DNA of 64,000 nucleotides from an uncultured Gemmatimonadales bacterium (GTDB lineage: Bacteria > Gemmatimonadota > Gemmatimonadetes > Gemmatimonadales > Gemmatimonadaceae): contig CAWKMU010000003.1 in the NCBI GenBank assembly GCA_963850905.1, positions 416,001 to 480,000 of the forward strand, written 5' to 3'. A program made the translations under genes and the position numbers. Positions 17,733 to 27,387 of the stretch are shown in pieces. Position 1 is the first letter of the stretch. Each line of letters starts with the position of its first letter. A model generated the notes under the pieces. The model was not told where the DNA came from. It did no database searches and saw only the letters and a program-made list of their open reading frames with translations.

Positions 17733-18378
17733 TGCTCCGCGCACGCGAAACGAACTCGTTGCCCTTCACGAAATACCGCAACATCCCCTCCGTCGCACGC
17801 GTGATCCCCACGCGCCGTGAGACTGCCACATCCGCGTCCGCGAGCTCCCGCCCGCGACGTACCACGAGCGGCGGGCGTTGCAGCGGCAGGCCGCTGAAGT
17901 GACCGTCAATGCCCAGGGCCTCGCAGAGCTTACCGGGGCCGTTCGTGAGGGTGCGGTCGGTCCTGGATAGCACGCTCGCGCTCCCACCCGCCGACCCGCG
18001 CCGAGCGCGCATGAGCGACAGCCCCTCCAGCGGCTCGATGGCGCGCACGAGCACCGCTGCCCCACCATTCCGCCGCCCGCTCACGGCGTTGAAGCACCAA
18101 TGCACGCCGTATATGAAATAGACGTAGGAGGTGCCCGGCGGTCCAAACAGATCGCGCGTCCGATCGGTGAGTCCGACGACCGCGTGGCTCGCAAGGTCTG
18201 TCGGCCCGAGGTACGCCTCCGTCTCCACGATTCGGCCGGCGGCGCGACCGGCGGAACTCTCGCACTCCAGCACAGTGCCGAGCATGGCGCGCGCGACCAG
18301 TTCCGTTTCGCGTGCATAAAACCCGCGCGGCAGCGGCCGACGACTGTCGGCCGCTGCGCCGCGCACCCGCGTCGTCAC
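17728..18378 (-). CDS. DNA-3-methyladenine glycosylase (MPG/AAG family)
   Basis: GRIVETEAY, YVYFIYGVH, AVLVRAIEP, NGPGKLC, RVGIT. Confidence 0.92.
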   Translation of the reverse strand: MTTRVRGAAADSRRPLPRGFYARETELVARAMLGTVLECESSAGRAAGRIVETEAYLGPTDLASHAVVGLTDRTRDLFGPPGTSYVYFIYGVHWCFNAVSGRRNGGAAVLVRAIEPLEGLSLMRARRGSAGGSASVLSRTDRTLTNGPGKLCEALGIDGHFSGLPLQRPPLVVRRGRELADADVAVSRRVGITRATEGMLRYFVKGNEFVSRARSS

Positions 18379-20237
18379 TGGTCCGTTGACTTCGACGCCG
18401 CTTTGCCCCGTCCCGCCGCGCGCTTCTTTGGCGTCGATTCGCTCGCCGCCGGCGCCGCGCGTTTGGTCCGCGCTCGCCCTCGCTTCGCCGCCGCCGCACG
18501 CCGCGCCGGCGGCGGAGCGCTTGCCGCCACTGCCGGCTCAGTCACGGCGGTTCCATGCGCCGCGGCACCAGGTGTCGGCGTCCGCGACTCCGCATGAGGG
18601 ACGAGCTCGACTGGGTGGTCCAGCGCGTGCCCAGCCTCCTGCGACGGTTCCGACGCGCCTGCCGGCGAGCCGGGCCGCACATCGACGATCCCGACCGAGA
18701 GCAACTCTGCCGGTGGCGCAGCCAGGCGCGCGTGCAACCCGCCACGTCGTACTCCCCGGACACCGAGTCCGCGCGGCGGCGCAGGGCCGGACGCGCCGGC
18801 AGCAGAAGCCGCCGGCCGAGTGTTCGCGGCAGCGGCAGCGTTGAGCTGTTGCGCCACCGGCGCAGCAGCTGCGGCTGGTACGACCTCGTAGTCGTCGCCA
18901 CGACGGCGCAGGTCGATCACGTCCGCATCGTGCGCATCGCGCAGAATTCGCGCGAAGTTCCGCTCGCTCAAGCTCTCGCTGTCGCGTCCGAGGATCTCGA
19001 ACGCCCTGCCGCGAATATCGGACGCGCGTACCGCGTCCTCGCCGTGTTGCAGCGCCGCCACGGCGCGCCGCACGAGGTCGAACGCTTCATCCCGCGTCAG
19101 TCGCTCGCCTGAAACACCGACCGCCGCAGCGGCCTCCTGCTCTCCCTGCTCGACGGGGCTCGTCGCCGGTACGGTCGGAACAGCCGCCACAGCCGGCACC
19201 GCCGCCGCCTCGGCCGGCACGTCAGCGGCCGGACCCGAGTCGCGTGCGGCCCTTGGCTCACGACCACGCCCACGCCCACCCCTCCGACCGCGCCGGCCAC
19301 GCTCTTCATGTGCCTTGGCCTCGCGGTCGGCTGGTGCGGACGCACGCTCTTCGGGCGCACTCGGCGTTGCGGGGGCTGCTGGCGCGCTCTCAGCCGCGCC
19401 CGGTCCCGCGCGAACAGGTCCGACTTCGAGTTGCCCGTTGTCCATCTTCGAGAGCGAGATCAGCCCGCGTTGTGCCGCTTCCTGCACGAAGCGTGAGAAC
19501 TTGGACATCCCGAGGTTCTTCTCGTCGAACGTGCTATCGATGTCCTGCATGACCTGCTTCAACCGATCGGCACGCATAACATCGCCGTTCCGCACCATGC
19601 GCGCGATCGCCTCGCTCACCAGCTCCCACGGGTCGCGCCGTCCTCCAGCGCCCGCTTCATCCTCCCCACCCGCACGCACGAGCCCGGCAAGCGCGTTGTA
19701 GCTGTAGTACTCGTCGCAGTTCATGACCAACAAGTCGCTGGACGACTCGCGAATGCCGACGCCGATCACGTACTTCCCGTACTCCTTGAGCTTGATCACA
19801 AGCGTCGAGAAATCGGAGTCGCCCGAGAGCAGGATGTACGTCCCGATCTCCGGTCGCGTGAACACCAGCTCCAATGCATCGATCGCCAGCCGGATATCGG
19901 TCGCGTTCTTCTTCGATGACCCGTACGCCGGCGCCATGATCATGTCGATCGAGGACTCGGCGAGTGGCGCGACGTACTGCGGGTAGCGGCGCCAGTCGGC
20001 GTAGGCACGCCGCAGCTGAACCTTCCCTTTGATGATGTCCGACGCCAGCAGCGTCCTCAGCTCCGTCTGCAGATCGGAGCGAATCCCCATCGTGACGTTG
20101 TCAAAATCGATGAGGAGCGCTGCGTTGGGCGCGAAGGTGAGTGGGGTCGGGACCGGGATGGGCGGCTGAGCGGACGGTGGACGGTGGACCGCTGGGGCGG
20201 CGCGCGAGGGCGTGTGGCGGGGGGAACGTGAGTTCAT
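18375..20237 (-). CDS. NYN (LabA/DUF88) domain protein with OST-HTH/LOTUS-like domains
   Basis: LIDFDN, KNATDIRLAIDA, LSGDSDF, CDEY; FDEKNLGMSKFSRFV; basic low-complexity tail. Confidence 0.85.
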   Translation of the reverse strand: MNSRSPRHTPSRAAPAVHRPPSAQPPIPVPTPLTFAPNAALLIDFDNVTMGIRSDLQTELRTLLASDIIKGKVQLRRAYADWRRYPQYVAPLAESSIDMIMAPAYGSSKKNATDIRLAIDALELVFTRPEIGTYILLSGDSDFSTLVIKLKEYGKYVIGVGIRESSSDLLVMNCDEYYSYNALAGLVRAGGEDEAGAGGRRDPWELVSEAIARMVRNGDVMRADRLKQVMQDIDSTFDEKNLGMSKFSRFVQEAAQRGLISLSKMDNGQLEVGPVRAGPGAAESAPAAPATPSAPEERASAPADREAKAHEERGRRGRRGGRGRGREPRAARDSGPAADVPAEAAAVPAVAAVPTVPATSPVEQGEQEAAAAVGVSGERLTRDEAFDLVRRAVAALQHGEDAVRASDIRGRAFEILGRDSESLSERNFARILRDAHDADVIDLRRRGDDYEVVPAAAAAPVAQQLNAAAAANTRPAASAAGASGPAPPRGLGVRGVRRGGLHARLAAPPAELLSVGIVDVRPGSPAGASEPSQEAGHALDHPVELVPHAESRTPTPGAAAHGTAVTEPAVAASAPPPARRAAAAKRGRARTKRAAPAASESTPKKRAAGRGKAASKSTDQ

Positions 20238-20419: not shown

Positions 20420-21796
20420 ATGGCACCACCGCGGTTTCGTACGCGCTTGTTCCTCACGCTGTCGCTGTTTGCGGTACTCCCAGCGGCCATTCTGACGCTG
20501 CTCTGGGCTGCAACATTGAGTACCGCGCTGCCGTTGCTGAGCGGCAGCGATGCGTGGGATCGCGTGGCCGCGAGCGGAGAGCGGGCGTTCGCCAGCGCGC
20601 GCTCGGAGGCGCTGACACCCGCGACGCGCACCGCGCTGGCTGCGCATGAGCAGGAGCTGGCGGCGTCGGTGACGCAAGCACGACGGTACCGGTATCTGGC
20701 GGTGCGCGCGGTGCCGATCGTCCTCGTGGTCGCCGCCGGCGCGCTCCTCCTGCTCGCGATCATCGCGTCGCGCGTGGCAGGACACCTCGCGAGGCAACTC
20801 AGCCGCCCGCTCGATGAGCTCGTGGGATGGACGGATCGCATCGCGCACGCGTTGCCTCTGCCGGTGACACCGCCACGGAGGGGCGCACCCGAGTTCGAAG
20901 TGCTGCGCCGCCGGATGCGCGCGATGGCCACGGATCTGGATGCCGGCCGCGCACGGGACCTGGAAGCCGAGCGGCTCCGCGCCTTCCGCGAAACCGCCCG
21001 CCAGGTGGCACATGAGTTGAAGAACCCGCTGACGCCCATCCGTCTCGCGGTCGGCCGCCTGCAGCGCGAGGCTCCCCCGATGCTACGTGATACGGTCGAC
21101 GTCTTGGCGACCGAGTCCGCTCGTTTGGAGGAGATGGCGCGGAGCTTTTCACAGTTCGGCAGGCTGCCAGAGGGACCGGCAGCGGACATCGACGTCGGTG
21201 AGATGGCCCGGTACACCACGCGAGCAGCCGTGCCCTCTCACATACCGGTCTCGGTCGAGGTCGATCCGGGAGTGCCACTCGTTCGCGGTCACTACGACAC
21301 GCTGGCGCGCGCGCTCACCAACGTGCTCCTCAACGCCTGCGACGCCTGTGCGCAGGGTGGGACCATCGAGGTCCACGTCACCGGAGCGACCTTGAACGCG
21401 GCAGGCACCACCGACGCCGTTCGGATCCTCGTCCGGGACGGAGGGACCGGCATCCCGGCAGACCGCGTGGCGCACGTGTGGGAGCCCTATGTGACGAACA
21501 AGCCGGGCGGCACGGGCCTGGGCTTGGCGATTACCCGCCAGGCCGTTGAGGCGCACGCGGGCCGCGTCGAGCTGACAAGTGTCGTGGGTCAAGGCACCGA
21601 CGTGTCGTTCACCCTGCCGGCCGCCCCCGCCGCGTCTGCCACGGCCAACGGAGCGGCACTCGCCGACCCGTCGCGCTCGGGCGTTGCGGCGTCGCCGGCC
21701 GAACCGTCGTCAGCGGTGACGTCCGAGCGCTCTCCACGTGATCCACAGCCCCGCCCAGGAACCGCCGGACGCCGCGTTGGCGGAGCAATGTCGTAA
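20420..21796 (+). CDS. HAMP-domain sensor histidine kinase (NtrY-like)
   Basis: Two TM helices, ARQVAHELKNPLTPI H box, NVLLNA, DGGTGI, GGTGLGL. Confidence 0.92.
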   Translation: MAPPRFRTRLFLTLSLFAVLPAAILTLLWAATLSTALPLLSGSDAWDRVAASGERAFASARSEALTPATRTALAAHEQELAASVTQARRYRYLAVRAVPIVLVVAAGALLLLAIIASRVAGHLARQLSRPLDELVGWTDRIAHALPLPVTPPRRGAPEFEVLRRRMRAMATDLDAGRARDLEAERLRAFRETARQVAHELKNPLTPIRLAVGRLQREAPPMLRDTVDVLATESARLEEMARSFSQFGRLPEGPAADIDVGEMARYTTRAAVPSHIPVSVEVDPGVPLVRGHYDTLARALTNVLLNACDACAQGGTIEVHVTGATLNAAGTTDAVRILVRDGGTGIPADRVAHVWEPYVTNKPGGTGLGLAITRQAVEAHAGRVELTSVVGQGTDVSFTLPAAPAASATANGAALADPSRSGVAASPAEPSSAVTSERSPRDPQPRPGTAGRRVGGAMS

Positions 21797-24700
21797 TGGC
21801 ATCCGTCCTGATCGTCGACGATGAGCAGAACATTCGCCGCATGCTCGGCGCGTTGCTCATCGCCGAAGGGCACGAAGTGCGCGACGCACCTACCGGAGTG
21901 GCCGCGGTCGCCGCCGCAAAGGACGCCGCGCCAGATGTCGTGCTGCTCGATCTCATGATGCCAGGGCCGCTCGACGGCTTGGGGACGCTGGCCCAGCTCC
22001 GCGAGAACGACTCCGATCTCCCCGTCATCATGATGAGTGGGCGGGCCGGGTTGAGTGACGCGGTGCGTGCGACCAAGCTCGGAGCGTTCAACTTTCTCGA
22101 GAAACCGCTGTCGCCCGAATCGGTGCTGCTGGCCATCTCCGCCGCATTCGACCTCCGACAGGCACGGGCCGCGGCCAAAACGCTGCGTGTGGAGCTCGGA
22201 CTCGACGGCCCACTCGTCGGCGCAAGCGCCCCAATGCGACGAGTCGCCGAGCTGATGGCGCGCGTCGCACCCAGCGACTCCGGAGTGCTGATCACCGGCG
22301 AGTCGGGGACCGGCAAGGAGCTCGTCGCCGCCGCGATTCATGCCGGGAGCCGGCGACGGGACCGCCCCTTCGTTCGGGTCAATTGCGCCGCCATTCCGCG
22401 TGACCTCGTCGAAAGCGAGATGTTCGGACACGAGCGAGGTGCCTTTACCGGCGCGACCGACCGCCGCATCGGCCGGTTCGAGTTGGCGCACACCGGCACG
22501 CTCTTTCTCGACGAGGTCGGCGACCTGGGAGCGGAAGCGCAGGCCAAGTTGTTGCGCGCCATCGATGCGAAGGAAATCGAGCGTGTCGGAGGAACGCGCA
22601 CCATCCGTACGGACTTGCGGATCGTTGCGGCGACCAACAAGGACCTGCCCAGAGCGGTCGCCGAGGGCGGCTTTCGGGAAGATCTATATTTCCGCATAGC
22701 GGTTATCCCCATCGCCCTACCGCCCCTGCGTGACCGGTCGACCGATATCCCAGCACTCGTTCAACACTTCACCACGCTCCACCGAGCCCGCACGGGACGC
22801 GCCGTTCGCGGATGGAGTGACGACGCACTGCGTGTGCTCACGACGTATCGCTGGCCCGGCAACGTTCGCGAGCTCGCAAACATCGTCGAGCGCATCACGA
22901 TCCTGCACGCCAACGACCTCGTGACCGAGGACGACGTGCTCGCTGTGCTGCCCCTCGAGAACAGTACGGAGCCTGCGTGGTGGCGAGGCGATGTCGCATC
23001 GGCAACGGCGTGGCCGCGGGAGGCCGACGCGCGCCCGCGTCAGACCGCGCACGATGGCGCACACGGGCACGCGGCGACCCTGCCGACCGACACGGCGCGC
23101 GATGGAACCCGCCTCACGGCCCCGACCTCGGCGGACCCTCAGATCCCACTCGCCGACGCGCTCGACGCCTACGAGCGCCAGTTGATCGCGGAGGCGCTGA
23201 CGGACACGCAGGGCAATGTCACCGAGGCCGCTCGGCGCCTGCAGACTGATCGGCCCAATCTCTACCGCCGCATGCGGCGACTCGGCATCGCGCTCGGTGT
23301 GGTCCTCGCGTGCGCGCTCGCCATTACGGGAGCACTCGGCCTCACACCTGGGCGCGCCGCCGCCCAACGCCCGGACACCGCGGCCAGTAGTCAAAGTACG
23401 CCGCAGGTCCAGGAGGTGCCATCGTCAGCCGCCGCGTCTGGGGACTCGAGTGCGACATCAAACAACAGCGACACCACCGCGCTGGGCCACGCCGACACGG
23501 CGAGTCGCGCGGACAGTACGCCGCCGAGCGGCGATGCGTGGTGGCGTCGATGGCTGCTCCCGTCACATCCACCGAACTACGTCTCGTTCTCGCTCACCTC
23601 TGCCCACACCTACAACCGCGTCGAGGGCTTCCCGATCTATGCCGGCCCGACCGGGCGGCGAGTCTTTCCCTGGGGAAGCGTGTCGGGCGAGGCATACGGG
23701 ATCCTGCGCATTTCCGACAAGCTGCGCTGGGACGATGACCATATTGGAAGCGCTCTACACGGCCAGGTCACGGTCAACGCAGGGCCCGACCGCTCGTTCG
23801 CGGTCGGCGCACGCGTCTACGACGAGATCGACCCGGTCGAGTCCTGGCAGCTCTCGGACGCCGAAGTCGGCCTCGCCACCCTCTTTCTGCACCGCGACTA
23901 CGAAGACTACTTCGGCCGGCACGGGGCCATGGGGTACGTGGCGTTCAACCTCAACGCGAGTACCTCCTTCTCGCTCTCGTACTCCGACGAGCGCTGGGCC
24001 TCGCGCCCCGACCGCGACCCGTTCTCGGTGTTTCGCAACACCGCGGAGTGGCGCTTCAATCCAAACGTCGACGACGGACTGTTCCGCATCGCCGGCGCTC
24101 ATTTCGGGTTCGATACCCGCAACGACGAGACCGACCCGTGGGCCGGGTGGTACGTCTCCGCCGACCTCGAAGAAGGAGCCGGCGTGGTGACGAGCTTCGG
24201 CCCACGCACGGATGGAACAACCCCCATCGCGCCGGCCGGCGGAGCGAATGTCTTTTATACCCGCGGCTTCCTCGATGCACGGCGCTATAATCGGGTCGGC
24301 CCGACCGAGCAGCTCAACCTGCGACTCGTCCTCGCGGGCTGGCTCGCCGGCGATCAGTTGCCGCTGGAGCAACGCTTCTCGATGGGCGGCGCAGGCACGC
24401 TCCCCGGTTTTGATTTCCGGAATCCGGGCGCGGGCGCGGATGTGGCGACGTGCTCTGCCGGATCCCTGGTGCCGCCCGGTGCGCCCGCCCAATGCGAGCG
24501 CATCGCGCTTGCGCAGGTGGAATTCCGGCACGACCTGCGGGTCGGCCTCGCGGATCTCGTGCGCGGTGTGCCGCTCGACGGTGCGTGGATTCTCTTCGCC
24601 GACGCCGGTCGGGGGTGGCTCGTTGGTACGCCCGATGGATCAGTGACCTACCATGCGTCCACGCTGCCCCCGCTGGCCACCTTCCGGACCGACGCCGGTG

Positions 24701-24810
24701 TGGGCCTGGCGCTCGGGCCGTTCGGTTTCTACGTCGCGCAACCGATCTCGCCGTGGACCGGGGGCGCCGGCGGCCCGCGCTTCGTCATCCGCCTACAGCA
24801 ACGGTTCTGA
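21796..24810 (+). CDS. Sigma54-dependent response regulator (REC-AAA+-HTH) fused in frame to a signal peptide and Omp85/BamA-like barrel
   Basis: IVDDE/LLDLMMP, GESGTGKE, GAFTGA, WPGNVREL, HTH; then hydrophobic helix + AAA|Q, YNRVEG, FSMGGAGTLPGF, terminal QQRF. Confidence 0.85.
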   Translation: MASVLIVDDEQNIRRMLGALLIAEGHEVRDAPTGVAAVAAAKDAAPDVVLLDLMMPGPLDGLGTLAQLRENDSDLPVIMMSGRAGLSDAVRATKLGAFNFLEKPLSPESVLLAISAAFDLRQARAAAKTLRVELGLDGPLVGASAPMRRVAELMARVAPSDSGVLITGESGTGKELVAAAIHAGSRRRDRPFVRVNCAAIPRDLVESEMFGHERGAFTGATDRRIGRFELAHTGTLFLDEVGDLGAEAQAKLLRAIDAKEIERVGGTRTIRTDLRIVAATNKDLPRAVAEGGFREDLYFRIAVIPIALPPLRDRSTDIPALVQHFTTLHRARTGRAVRGWSDDALRVLTTYRWPGNVRELANIVERITILHANDLVTEDDVLAVLPLENSTEPAWWRGDVASATAWPREADARPRQTAHDGAHGHAATLPTDTARDGTRLTAPTSADPQIPLADALDAYERQLIAEALTDTQGNVTEAARRLQTDRPNLYRRMRRLGIALGVVLACALAITGALGLTPGRAAAQRPDTAASSQSTPQVQEVPSSAAASGDSSATSNNSDTTALGHADTASRADSTPPSGDAWWRRWLLPSHPPNYVSFSLTSAHTYNRVEGFPIYAGPTGRRVFPWGSVSGEAYGILRISDKLRWDDDHIGSALHGQVTVNAGPDRSFAVGARVYDEIDPVESWQLSDAEVGLATLFLHRDYEDYFGRHGAMGYVAFNLNASTSFSLSYSDERWASRPDRDPFSVFRNTAEWRFNPNVDDGLFRIAGAHFGFDTRNDETDPWAGWYVSADLEEGAGVVTSFGPRTDGTTPIAPAGGANVFYTRGFLDARRYNRVGPTEQLNLRLVLAGWLAGDQLPLEQRFSMGGAGTLPGFDFRNPGAGADVATCSAGSLVPPGAPAQCERIALAQVEFRHDLRVGLADLVRGVPLDGAWILFADAGRGWLVGTPDGSVTYHASTLPPLATFRTDAGVGLALGPFGFYVAQPISPWTGGAGGPRFVIRLQQRF

Positions 24811-24812
24811 CG

Positions 24813-25514
24813 ATGCGCGCCAGGTTGATCACCGCCACCATGCTAGCCCTGCTCGCGGCAGCCACGCCAGCGCACGGCCAGCATCCGCGCGTGGCCCTCG
24901 ATCTGCCCCCCACAGCAGATACGTTGGCCCCTGGAGCCGGAACCACGGGAGAGGCCGGGAGCTTCGGCCCCACCGGCCCCATCGTCATCGGCCCGACCGT
25001 GCGAGCAATCGACGTGCTGTCGGACGGCCAGACGCGCGACTTGCTGCGCAACGGCTTCCCCGCCCGACTCCACTATCGCTTGGAATTGTGGCGTCAAAAT
25101 GGAGTCTTCAGCGCCATCGACAATACCAAGGAATGGGATGTCATCGTACGATTCGATCCGCTGACCAAGCGATTCCGTGCGGCGCGAGTGACCGGCGACA
25201 CGGCCACGGTCTTCGGCGATTTCCCGCAGTTCCCGGCGCTCGCCTCGGCGATGGCCGCGCCCTTCGTCGTCCCGCTCGTACCGAAGCGCCGCGGCGGCCG
25301 GTATTTCTACAACGTGGTCCTCGATGTGGAGATGCTGTCCCTCAGTGATCTCGATGAAGTCGAACACTGGCTGCGCGGCGAGTTGCGGCCCGCCGTCCAG
25401 GGCAAACGGAACCCCGCCGGCGTCGTCGGCCGCGGACTCCGCACGCTCTTCGTCCGCCTCCTCGGCGCCGAGCGCCGTCACTATGAGGTGCGATCGAAGG
25501 AGTTCAAAGGGTAG
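24813..25514 (+). CDS. Secreted protein, DUF4390-like
   Basis: Signal peptide AHG|Q; LLRNGFPARLHYRLELWR...VRFDPLTKRF pattern; stop codon lies in a REP. Confidence 0.6.
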   Translation: MRARLITATMLALLAAATPAHGQHPRVALDLPPTADTLAPGAGTTGEAGSFGPTGPIVIGPTVRAIDVLSDGQTRDLLRNGFPARLHYRLELWRQNGVFSAIDNTKEWDVIVRFDPLTKRFRAARVTGDTATVFGDFPQFPALASAMAAPFVVPLVPKRRGGRYFYNVVLDVEMLSLSDLDEVEHWLRGELRPAVQGKRNPAGVVGRGLRTLFVRLLGAERRHYEVRSKEFKG

Positions 25515-25637: not shown

Positions 25638-25778
25638 GGGCGGCCTAAAGGCCGCCCCTACATGTCGGATCGACGGTGACACTCCCAGCGAGCCGTACCG
25701 ACGATTGCAATTACGGGTCGATGAATCTGGTTCTTATGCTGCCCGCAGCGACATGTAGGGGCGGGCTTCAGCCCGCCC
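25638..25778. repeat. 141-bp REP doublet (REPIN-like), copy 1
   Basis: Inverted REPs at 25638-25661(-) and 25755-25778(+) with 93-nt spacer; homologous to 33234-33374. Confidence 0.85.
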
Positions 25779-25831
25779 ACCTTGCCGAATCGTCGCTGTT
25801 GTGGTTCCAGACCCCTGACCCCCGTTAAGCC

Positions 25832-26420
25832 TCACCCCACCGCCCGAATCACCTTCCGCTGTTCCAGTTCCTCCAACTGGTGCAACGTCTCCGCCCCGTA
25901 GAACAACTTGATGTACCGCGCTTGGGTGGGCGTGAGACGGCGCACCGCCCAGCTCAGATGCACGAAGTGCGGCTCCACGGGCAGCGTGAGCGGATGCATG
26001 CCGATCTCCTCGGGGAGGCGATTGGCCTTCCGCGTGTTGCAGGGCGCGCACGCGGTCACGACGTTGCTCCAGTCGTTCGTGCCGCCCCGGGAGAGCGGAA
26101 TCGAGATGATCGCGCGTCAAGCCCTCGCGCGGCTTCAAGTCAGCCGCGGAGCGCCCGCAGTACTGGCAGCGATAGCGATCGCGCGCGAAGAGGAACGTGT
26201 TGGTCACCTGGCGGCGGAACCGGCGGGGCACGTGGATGAACTTCGTGAGGCGGATCACGACCGGGCGCGGCAACGTCAGACGCTCGGACCGCACCACTCG
26301 CTCAGCGTCGCACTCGACGACTTCGGCCTTGCCATCAATCACCAGGCGCAGTGCTCGCCGCATCGGCACCATCGTGAGCGGCTCGAATGACGCGTTGAGC
26401 GCCAGACACCCGGCGATCAC
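25832..26420 (-). CDS. HNH endonuclease (McrA-like; +1 frameshift near 26102)
   Basis: LALNASFEPL, LFARDRYRCQYCG, TRDHL|IPLSRGG, TACAPCNTRK; GGAG before GTG. Confidence 0.85.
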
Positions 26421-26443
26421 ACGCACTCCGGCCGCGCCCGCGG

Positions 26444-27387
26444 TCATCTCGCGGCGACAGCGGGCTCGGGAACCGGCTGTCAGCCACCCGTACGGATCGG
26501 GGTAGCGCCCGCGGGCAATGCCGAGATACCGGTCCTGCACAGCTTTGCTGATCGGGCCCTGGCTTGCCTTCGCCGACCTGAATGTGGTCGACCGACCGGA
26601 CCGGCGTGATCTCCGCGGCCGTGCCGCTGAAGAAAATCTCGTCGGCCATGTACAGGAACTCGCGCGGGATCAGCTGCTCCCGCACGTCGTGCCCCAGATC
26701 CGCGACGAGCCGCATCACCGTGTCGCGTGTGATCCCACCGAGGATGCCGGCCGACATGGGCGGCGTATAGACGACCCCTTCGCGCACGACGAAGATATTC
26801 TCGCCAGTGCCCTCGGAAACGAAGCCGGCCGCATCGAGCATGATCCCCTCGACGTACCCATTGGCTCGTGCCTCCATGAGCGACAACTGGCCATTCAGAT
26901 AGTTCCCGCCGGCCTTCGCCAGGGTCGGGAACGTGTCCGGTGCCGCGCGTCTCCAACTGGACACACAGACATCGACGCCTCTGGCCAACGCATCGTCACC
27001 GAGATACTGGCCCCACTTCCATGCGATGATGAACGTCTCGATCGTCCCTGGCTTGTCCTCGGGAAGCACCCCCATCCGTTCCCCGGTCCGGATCACGACC
27101 GGGCGAAGGTAGCACTCCTCGAGATCATTGGCGGCTACCGTGTCCACGCACGCCTGGATCAACGCGTCGATCGTGTACGGCAGCGGCATGCGATAAATGC
27201 GCGAGGAATCGACGAGACGCCGGACGTGGTCGCGCAGGCGAAAGATCGCCCCGCCCTGTGGAGTCTTGTAGCAGCGGAGACCCTCGAAGACGCTGGACCC
27301 GTAGTGCACGACGTGACTGAGCACGTGGATCGTGGCGTCGGGCCAGTCCACGAAGTGGCCATCCCGCCAAATCTTTTGGGTGCGCAT
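26444..27387 (-). CDS. ilvE: Branched-chain amino acid aminotransferase (two apparent +1 indels near 26557 and 26478)
   Basis: HYGSSVFEG, AKAGGNY, SEGTGENIF, ILGGITR, GTAAEITP; corrected end reads GPISKAVQDRY...WLTPVPEPAVAAR*. Confidence 0.9.

Follow-up and report, generated by a model that had tools for sequence, protein, structure and literature searches.

FbcH of Bradyrhizobium, the precursor of cytochromes b and c1, is reportedly a polyprotein that is split at an internal signal peptide. Regulated intramembrane proteolysis of RsiV is reported to be initiated by signal peptidase (PMC6066255), and RseP is described as a protease that removes remnant signal peptides and also cleaves RseA and FecR (PMC8144685, PMC10470546). 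PlrSR-PlrP of Bordetella combines an NtrC/NtrX-type regulator and an NtrY-like kinase with a periplasmic DUF4390 partner (PMC13001219), and NtrYX systems are reported to regulate the envelope (PMC7240162).

The locus described here is situated on the plus strand of the window (the whole 64,000-nt stretch of Gemmatimonadales DNA that was analyzed), where the following features were identified:

20420–21796 (+): sensor histidine kinase, HAMP-HisKA-HATPase_c (Pfam, ORF; start approximate, frame open from 20141)
21796–24810 (+): a single 1004-aa ORF without internal stop (ORF translation of the window), divided as follows
21796–23289 (+): activator half, residues 1–498 (ORF and Pfam)
21805–22137 (+): REC (Response_reg), residues 4–114 (Pfam)
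22213–22713 (+): Sigma54_activat (PF00158), residues 140–306 (Pfam, 227.8 bits)
residues 312–384 (+): AAA_lid_14 (Pfam)
23167–23280 (+): HTH_8, residues 458–495 (Pfam)
23272–23364 (+): putative dual-use segment, residues 493–523 (MRRLGIALGVVLACALAITGALGLTPGRAAA) (sequence, conservation across fused proteins)
23365–23565 (+): Ser/Thr/Pro-rich linker, residues 524–590 (predicted disordered, pLDDT <50 over model residues 19–88)
23566–24810 (+): predicted 16-stranded Omp85/BamA-like β-barrel, residues 591–1004 (Pfam, AF2, Foldseek)
residues 767–985 (+): Omp85 (PF01103) (Pfam, 37.1 bits; cut-off 24)
24813–25514 (+): predicted exported DUF4390-family protein, PlrP-like (Pfam on orthologues, synteny)

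The TAA stop codon of the kinase gene shares one base with the activator ATG at 21796 (TAATG), a GGAG sequence is present about 10 nt upstream of this ATG, and the DUF4390 gene starts 2 nt past the stop codon of the fusion. The cluster resembles the PlrSR-PlrP/NtrYX type in (i) its REC-AAA+-HTH_8 regulator with a GAFTGA motif, (ii) the overlap of the kinase and activator genes and (iii) the presence of a signal-peptide-bearing, putative DUF4390 gene. It differs from PlrSR-PlrP in that the DUF4390 gene is located downstream, not upstream, and in the insertion of an Omp85-like barrel gene, which is fused to the regulator. The DUF4390 gene follows the barrel in 20/20 loci; the protein encoded in the window scored 17.4 bits against PF14334 (cut-off 27), and 10 of 12 orthologues matched this family at E≤0.01 (best 1.8e-9). 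The arrangement suggests that Gemmatimonadales share a conserved module of four genes, putatively encoding a kinase of NtrY-like type, an activator of NtrX-like type, an Omp85 barrel lacking POTRA domains and a DUF4390 protein. The earlier note had proposed a polyprotein that connects envelope biogenesis with sigma-54 transcription; such a connection draws on the conserved kinase-activator-barrel-DUF4390 synteny and not just on the fusion. Scanning of the window for the sigma-54 promoter consensus identified five one-mismatch matches (3.9 expected), none of them meaningfully placed, and a scan of the window for sigma-70 promoters and terminators gave nothing exceeding shuffled sequences.

Judging from its domains and motifs, the activator half is a complete NtrC-family bacterial enhancer-binding protein (sigma-54 activator). 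With hand-written motif patterns, Walker A was placed at residue 168, GAFTGA at 215, Walker B at 237, the R-finger at 293 and sensor II at 355. All 35 fused proteins considered (see below) retain the Walker A, Walker B, R-finger and sensor II motifs. GAFTGA is present in 28 of the 35; of the seven exceptions, the six other than P0072 carry GSFTGA (five) or GSFSGA (one). Sigma-54 is encoded in the window's own genome (PF04552, 215 bits). The scores obtained with the NCBIfam equivalog models for NtrC (TIGR01818, 411.3; cut-off 558.6) and NtrX (NF051870, 379.3; cut-off 600) indicate an activator that belongs to the NtrC family, yet is neither an NtrC nor an NtrX equivalog.

The AF2 model of the barrel half (pLDDT 83.9) contains 16 strands, with a short helix (578–587 in the AF2 models) just ahead of the barrel. 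BamA (E 2.8e-10), TamA and Sam50 were its best structural matches in Foldseek, and Pfam Omp85 scores of 37–39 bits (cut-off 24) were obtained. Sequence and model assign the barrel half to the Omp85 superfamily, whose members BamA, TamA and Sam50 it resembles in its PF01103 match above cut-off, its 16 strands and its terminal Phe (C-terminus RLQQRF, followed by a TGA stop at 24808–24810). Many barrel columns are invariant among the 35 fused proteins. Unlike Omp85 proteins of the BamA/TamA/TpsB type, the window protein contains no POTRA domains detectable with Pfam at E≤0.01, and residues 524–590 are disordered in the model. In this region the stand-alone orthologues have a weak bactofilin-like N-terminal repeat region (L020, 20 bits, below cut-off), whereas the clade of the window protein has the disordered Ser/Thr linker. 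The loop-6 motif of Omp85 proteins is (V/I)RG(F/Y); the window barrel reads LPGF at this position, of which LPG is conserved.

The two halves are joined seamlessly: neither a vestigial stop codon nor leftover intergenic sequence is present between them. The sequence MRRLGI closes the last HTH helix and at the same time forms the n-region of a segment resembling a signal peptide. This segment has a basic n-region, a hydrophobic h-region and small residues at −3/−1, and is placed internally instead of at the N-terminus. M493 is encoded by the ATG at 23272 and Q524 by the codon beginning at 23365, with a predicted signal peptidase I (SPase I) site between A523 and Q524 (23364/23365). In a full-length AF2 model of low confidence (pLDDT 63.7), used solely for secondary structure around the junction, only L496-G497 separate the last HTH helix (486–495) from a hydrophobic helix (498–513). 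Both M493 and Q524 are invariant across the 35 fused proteins. A small-x-small|Q site is found in 34 of them, 18–31 residues past M493 (median 28). Of 95 stand-alone barrels, 86 carry this motif as well, at a median distance of 23. Most of this anatomy had been anticipated in the earlier note: the intact REC-AAA+(GAFTGA)-HTH region running stop-free into the barrel is borne out by the ORF and its Pfam domains, both of its codon positions (M493 and Q524) are correct, and YRR-MRRLGI is, as described, both the HTH end and a putative n-region. Its Ser/Thr linker and Omp85-like barrel with terminal Phe agree with Pfam, AF2 and the C-terminal sequence, and the structure prediction that it had recommended returned a 16-stranded BamA-like barrel after a disordered linker.

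The fusion is real, is not an assembly artefact and is conserved across a genus. The same junction (YRRMRRLGI, h-region, small-x-small, Q) was found in 10/10 genomes of the genus, down to approximately 59% barrel identity, in few-contig assemblies as well as in those of 50–130 contigs. Away from the junction, the ORF is frameshifted in four of these ten genomes (G004, G008, G001 and G005), which we attribute to indel errors of few-contig assemblies; gene decay may be an alternative source. The earlier note had suggested a search for proteins with the Sigma54_activat plus Omp85-like architecture elsewhere and had considered that this assembly alone might be fused. The latter idea fails, given the ten genomes of the genus and 34 fused proteins detected in databases. 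In a search with the barrel protein, all 33 matches longer than 896 aa were activator-barrel fusions (902–1121 aa), and a second protein search added one (P0072), giving 34 beyond the window. They originate from NCBI, ENA, JGI and Logan, and have in common the sequence LYRRM[RK]RL[GA][ILVM] followed by an h-region. The literature on Gemmatimonadetes, NtrX and Omp85 that was searched contained nothing on an activator-barrel fusion.

NCBI gives the source of one fused protein, P0023, as "Gemmatimonadetes bacterium T265" and does not label it as a MAG; this source may therefore be cultured, in which case bench tests would become possible. The literature search retrieved no paper on strain T265.

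Comparison of related loci revealed that separate genes are the norm. Among 80 species loci, 73 are split, 6 are fused and 1 is undetermined, and the genes are also split in G035, G039 and G012. In all ten other genera sampled, the genes are separate and adjacent, with a stop codon 4–10 codons after LGI, and in three loci (L029–L031) the activator TGA overlaps the barrel ATG (ATGA). Ancestrally, activator and barrel were thus encoded by neighbouring genes of the same orientation; in some relatives the stop codon of the first overlaps the start codon of the second (ATGA). In a barrel tree of 88 rows, the fused label requires six changes, at least four of them forced by starred branches. The AU test on a 38-row subset rejected a single fused clade (ΔlnL 265.5, p 4.2e-9); the fused group was delimited by the trait itself, and the test was run with the tree already known. 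At least three further Gemmatimonadota lineages carry the fusion, joined at the identical residue, and this join has formed four or more times among related lineages. One ancient fusion with numerous later fissions was rejected as unparsimonious in the light of the tree and the AU test, the separate forms being basal and in the large majority. Separate neighbouring genes as the common state, and fusion as a recurrent event, are what this comparative reading adds to the earlier note.

How a cytoplasmic regulator and an outer-membrane barrel could be produced from one ORF is best explained, with about even confidence, by a polyprotein that is inserted by Sec via the internal signal peptide and cut by SPase I. 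Each fusion would go back to a minor deletion or a frameshift that eliminated (i) the activator's tail of 0–31 codons, (ii) its stop codon, (iii) the spacer and (iv) the barrel's own Met-Arg n-region, whereupon MRRLGI of the activator would have taken over as n-region. All ribosomes translating the activator would then run on into the barrel half. The hydrophobic segment (499–516) would act as an internal N-in/C-out signal and engage Sec, and a cut by SPase I after A523 would free a barrel precursor starting with Gln for outer-membrane assembly. The activator would keep a C-terminal membrane anchor immediately after its DNA-recognition helix; since this helix almost abuts the hydrophobic one, the anchored activator may be unable to bind DNA. 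A site-2 (M50) protease would clear the signal-peptide remnant, possibly releasing the activator, as in regulated proteolysis of the RsiV/RseA type. Release by such a protease is likely because the HTH is still under strong constraint. Production as one chain with subsequent cleavage would thus yield activator and barrel 1:1 and make the supply of free activator dependent on successful export. The polyprotein model fits the small-x-small|Q site in 34 of 35 fused proteins, the invariant Q524, the unadapted internal ATG and the SPase I genes of the window's own genome (three Peptidase_S26 genes), which also encodes a Peptidase_M50 of the site-2 type. With approximately 500 folded cytoplasmic residues ahead of it, the barrel may be exported inefficiently.

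Like FbcH, the window protein would be translated from one ORF and divided in two by signal peptidase at an internal signal sequence. FbcH reportedly joins two membrane/periplasmic subunits of one complex, whereas the partners in the window protein are a soluble DNA-binding regulator and an outer-membrane protein. The topology predicted for the window protein is that of RsiV (sigma-V, Bacillus subtilis) and RseA (sigma-E, E. coli), with a regulatory domain in the cytoplasm, a single N-in/C-out helix and a part that is exported. Signal peptidase makes the first cut in RsiV (PMC6066255); in the window protein such a cut is predicted. In RsiV and RseA an anti-sigma factor is anchored and a sensor domain exported; the window protein would anchor the activator itself and export a barrel. 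An extension of the polyprotein model, which we consider doubtful, is that the activator serves as a cytoplasmic "pro-region" of the barrel precursor and is set free to bind DNA as a regulator only when Sec insertion, cleavage by SPase I and removal of the residual signal peptide through site-2 proteolysis have taken place. Regulon output would then be tied one-to-one to barrel export, an export-gated arrangement that would have evolved repeatedly in Gemmatimonadota.

It is quite possible, though less likely, that the barrel precursor is instead produced mainly by internal initiation at the in-frame ATG 23272 (M493) as an ordinary preprotein (MRRLGI…), the read-through fusion being a minor or tolerated by-product. 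A start at M493, which is invariant in 35/35 fused proteins, would give a textbook n/h/c signal peptide, but this residue is equally conserved in 83 split loci, where it is merely an HTH residue. In agreement with the earlier note, no purine-rich Shine-Dalgarno (SD)-like run is present in the 30 nt before this ATG; such a run was detected upstream of the internal ATG in none of 10 fused loci, while GGAG, AGGAG or GAGG lies 6–12 nt upstream of 7/10 separate barrel genes (barrel starts analyst-assigned). The SD use of the genome appears weak (18% vs 11% background, with crude ORF and start calls, indicative only), so SD-less starts may be common and the absence of an SD is compatible with initiation at M493. 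The fused lineages, however, show neither lower RNA structure nor AT enrichment relative to the split ones: folding energy around the ATG is −19.0 kcal (n = 10) and −18.5 kcal (n = 79), and AT content 0.30 (n = 10) and 0.32 (n = 79), respectively. Moreover, since no stop codon separates the halves, each activator molecule would still bear the barrel half, and internal initiation therefore leaves the need to process the fusion.

Quite improbable is an uncleaved trans-envelope protein, in which the hydrophobic segment would permanently anchor the chain in the inner membrane and the disordered linker would cross the periplasm to a barrel in the outer membrane, physically tying the activator to the latter. 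The linker of the window clade (approximately 67 residues, predicted disordered) could span the periplasm if fully extended, but in the fused clade of P0025 (902 aa) only about 20 residues separate the site from the barrel region, which is too short. Retention of the cleavage-site residues argues against it as well, as does the length range of the segment, which is that of the cleaved-type signal peptides of stand-alone orthologues. That the fusion reflects an error of assembly or sequencing, or a deletion that is recent, deleterious and without a functional fused product, is scarcely credible: assembly G000 (6 contigs, 82% completeness) and the frameshifts of related few-contig assemblies would suit a pseudogene or artefact, but this reading is largely refuted by the conservation of both halves and of the junction across independent sources and assembly types.

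In textbooks, a DNA-binding regulator of the cytoplasm and a protein of the outer membrane stand for opposite cellular locations, and a natural single ORF that joins both exactly at the signal peptide is therefore unexpected. Such a fusion, kept across a genus and re-created at least four times, provides a natural test of (i) whether Sec and signal peptidase can handle a signal behind approximately 500 folded residues, (ii) whether signal-peptide clearance can double as transcription-factor release and (iii) how translationally coupled neighbours become fusions. The four-gene module would tie an NtrYX-type system to an outer-membrane component, which fits the envelope regulation (PMC7240162) and the periplasmic DUF4390 partner (PMC13001219) reported for NtrYX systems.

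The coordinates and description of the activator-barrel reading frame proposed in the earlier note were borne out by analysis of the ORF, its Pfam domains and the junction DNA. The identified features are as follows (residue numbers refer to the 1004-aa protein):

21796..24810, + strand, fused activator-barrel ORF (1004 aa, uninterrupted)
residues 4-114, Response_reg (Pfam)
residues 140-306, Sigma54_activat (Pfam, 227.8 bits)
residues 312-384, AAA_lid_14 (Pfam)
residues 458-495, HTH_8 (Pfam)
residues 767-985, Omp85 (Pfam, 37.1 bits; cut-off 24)

NCBIfam places the protein in the NtrC family, with scores under the equivalog cut-offs for NtrC (411.3 vs 558.6) and NtrX (379.3 vs 600). The junction sequence (...ctc tac cgc cgc ATG CGG CGA CTC GGC ATC gcg ctc ggt...) contains neither a stop codon nor a residual spacer. 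The ATG of the in-frame internal methionine M493 is located at 23272, and the codon of Q524, the predicted first residue of the mature barrel, at 23365. Upstream, a HAMP-HisKA-HATPase kinase gene ends in a TAA that shares a base with the activator ATG (TAATG), and a GGAG sequence precedes this ATG by approximately 10 nt. The fusion terminates with TGA (24808-24810), 2 nt before the ATG of a downstream exported protein.

A barrel homolog is present in all 41 related genomes, and in each of the 20 returned loci the activator is encoded directly 5' of the barrel on the same strand. In all ten genomes of the window's genus (G000-G009, assembled into few contigs in some cases and into 50-130 contigs in others) the sequence YRRMRRLGI, which ends the last HTH helix, continues without a stop through a hydrophobic stretch and a small-x-small|Q motif into the barrel. 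In the ten loci from other genera (nine without L012 of G016, which is flagged unpublished) a stop is located 4-10 codons past LGI, and the barrel gene is separate, with its own signal peptide. A search for barrel matches, limited to proteins of 897-2560 aa, identified 33 proteins (902-1121 aa), all of which are fusions. The fusion is therefore shared by 10/10 genomes of the genus and by 33 long database proteins, and the possibility raised in the earlier note, that this assembly alone might be fused, is refuted. The database proteins originate from NCBI, ENA, JGI and Logan, under source names including 'NtrX', 'Gemmatirosa sp.' and 'Gemmatimonadetes bacterium T265', and are labeled as NtrX, sigma-54-interacting regulator or hypothetical.

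Frameshifts elsewhere in the ORF were found in four of the ten genus genomes, all few-contig assemblies (G004, locus L002; G008, L007; G001, L004; G005, L011). In G000, the window's own assembly, the M50 protease match is broken into two adjoining pieces. Together with completeness values of 66-93%, these observations suggest residual indel errors in few-contig assemblies, and the four frameshifts are read as such; decay of the gene in these genomes is possible. We are nearly certain that the fusion is real and conserved, and consider artefact or decay extremely improbable as its explanation.

The junction is highly uniform. In 34/34 database fusions, as in the window, ...LYRRM[RK]RL[GA][ILVM] is followed directly by the hydrophobic stretch, and M493 and Q524 are invariant in the 35 fused proteins. 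Stand-alone barrels start with a similar Met-Arg-x-(Leu) sequence, e.g. MSRLGIVFAAS... (locus L020) or VRRLFYLLLL... (protein P0035, sister of the window's clade). In split loci L029-L031, whose barrels share about 50% identity with that of the window (among the highest values for split loci), the activator TGA overlaps the barrel ATG (ATGA) four codons past LGI; because of this overlap, the two genes would be translationally coupled and one small indel short of fusion. This overlap, and the resemblance between the activator end and the barrel starts, make it likely that the fusions arose when a short deletion or a frameshift joined two alike Met-Arg-Arg-Leu coding stretches, which would also explain the recurrence of an identical join.

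An exhaustive HMMER search yielded 657 matches at E<=0.001; among the best 150, only P0016 and P0072 reach 900 aa, and stand-alone proteins of 540-640 aa account for at least 95. The 80 species-representative loci, every one labeled Gemmatimonadales, Gemmatimonadaceae or Gemmatimonadota, comprise 73 split loci, six fused ones (all from the window's genus) and one that was not judged; three more relatives whose open frames are long (G035, G039, G012) are also split. A tree was built from the last 430 residues of 35 fused and 53 separate barrels (88 rows), omitting L012, L019 and fragmentary matches and including the first 45 representatives of the 540-640 aa stand-alone proteins. It contains four distinct fused clades, each beside stand-alone sisters, and requires six changes between the fused and separate states, of which at least four are forced by well-supported branches. 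A single fused clade was rejected by the AU test on a 38-row subset (delta lnL 265.5, p 4.2e-9). The tree on its own does not set the direction of change, but repeated fusion is the parsimonious direction, since separate genes are basal and in the large majority.

Residues 493-1004 were modeled using a 70-sequence alignment (mean pLDDT 83.9, pTM 0.81). With M493 as residue 1, the model comprises a helix (2-21), a disordered region (19-88), a short helix (86-95) and 16 beta-strands, and the protein ends with ...RLQQRF. The top Foldseek match in the PDB was BamA (5ayw_A, E 2.8e-10), with TamA (4c00) and Sam50 (9nk6_B) also among the matches; no POTRA domain was found by Pfam in the barrel half. 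Stand-alone orthologs carry about 100 additional N-terminal residues with the repeat GDVAVLxGPLTIAGxVxGxVVVINGDV... (L010, L012-L018, L020; P0034-P0070), which in one case, L020, gives a weak Bactofilin match (20 bits, below cut-off). This region is retained in two fused clades and absent from the other two, including the window's, where a disordered Ser/Thr linker takes its place. Replacement of POTRA by a beta-helix-like periplasmic domain on an Omp85 barrel appears unusual.

Since there is no stop, every activator chain runs on into the barrel. All 35 fused proteins retain Walker A, Walker B, the R-finger and sensor II. GAFTGA occurs in 28 of them, GSFTGA in five and GSFSGA in one (P0072 was not read there); the GSFTGA/GSFSGA carriers (P0006, P0009, P0011-P0014) form a subclade in which the remaining AAA+ motifs are intact. 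The HTH is almost identical between fused and split lineages, and by its motifs the activator half appears plainly functional. The small-x-small|Q motif, 18-31 residues past M493 (median 28), is found in 34/35 fused proteins and in 86/95 stand-alone barrels (median 23). As previously noted for the window, no Shine-Dalgarno (SD) sequence precedes the internal ATG, an SD-like run being found in 0/10 fused loci; GGAG, AGGAG or GAGG is located 6-12 nt 5' of the start in 7/10 separate barrel genes (starts assigned by us). Around the M493 codon, fused (n=10) and split (n=79) loci have comparable folding energies (-19.0 vs -18.5 kcal/mol) and AT fractions (0.30 vs 0.32), and the preceding codons look alike. 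The window's genome encodes three S26 signal peptidases, one M50 site-2 protease and sigma-54.

The open junction, the activator and HTH conservation, the small-x-small|Q motif, the lack of an SD sequence or any start-site difference, and the S26, M50 and sigma-54 genes together favor a predicted polyprotein cut by signal peptidase I (SPase I), to which we give an even chance, over production of the barrel mainly via internal initiation, which is rather unlikely, and over an uncut trans-envelope protein, which is improbable. Against the polyprotein, SD use appears weak genome-wide (18% vs 11% background in a crude scan). Moreover, in a low-confidence full-length model (pLDDT 63.7) the last HTH helix (486-495) is closely followed by a hydrophobic helix (498-513), so the recognition helix of a still anchored activator would be pinned at the membrane. 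Because the HTH remains under constraint, we speculate that the SPase I cut may be followed by a second one, which would free the activator. Such release would resemble the regulated intramembrane proteolysis of RsiV, initiated by signal peptidase (PMC6066255), and the removal of signal-peptide remnants by RseP (PMC8144685 and PMC10470546).

The surroundings of the fused ORF contain the following genes:

18378-20237, - strand, NYN-domain protein (620 aa; N-terminal NYN, 85.9 bits)
24813-25514, + strand, exported DUF4390-family gene (3' of the barrel in 20/20 loci)
25737-26540, - strand, ORF without a Pfam match
26338-27387, - strand, class IV aminotransferase

The NYN protein, encoded divergently from the kinase gene, has a long low-complexity Ala/Pro/Arg-rich C-terminal half. 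Apart from the DUF4390-family gene, these flanking genes are unrelated to the activator-barrel module. DUF4390 is matched by 10 of 12 orthologs of the downstream exported protein (best E 1.8e-9), the window's own copy falling below the cut-off of 27 at 17.4 bits. The activator HTH end lies 5' of the barrel in 79/80 further loci; the kinase was seen in the window alone, as the flanks of the other loci end inside the activator gene. Around the operon, promoter signals (sigma-54 and sigma-70) and terminator signals did not exceed chance.

In Bordetella, PlrP (DUF4390) is reported, on genetic evidence, to act in the periplasm as a third member of PlrSR, an NtrYX-family system (PMC13001219). PlrP-PlrS-PlrR is thus a parallel set (DUF4390 protein, NtrY-like kinase, NtrX-like activator), although the gene order and phylum differ. 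From this comparison and the shared DUF4390, the module resembles an NtrYX-type envelope system that may have recruited a POTRA-less Omp85 barrel.

No report of an activator-Omp85 fusion, and no paper on strain T265, was found in open-access full text and bioRxiv. The component families are known, and there are precedents both for polyproteins with an internal signal and for proteolysis initiated by signal peptidase. What is unusual is that an outer-membrane barrel is joined to a DNA-binding regulator, and that this join recurs.
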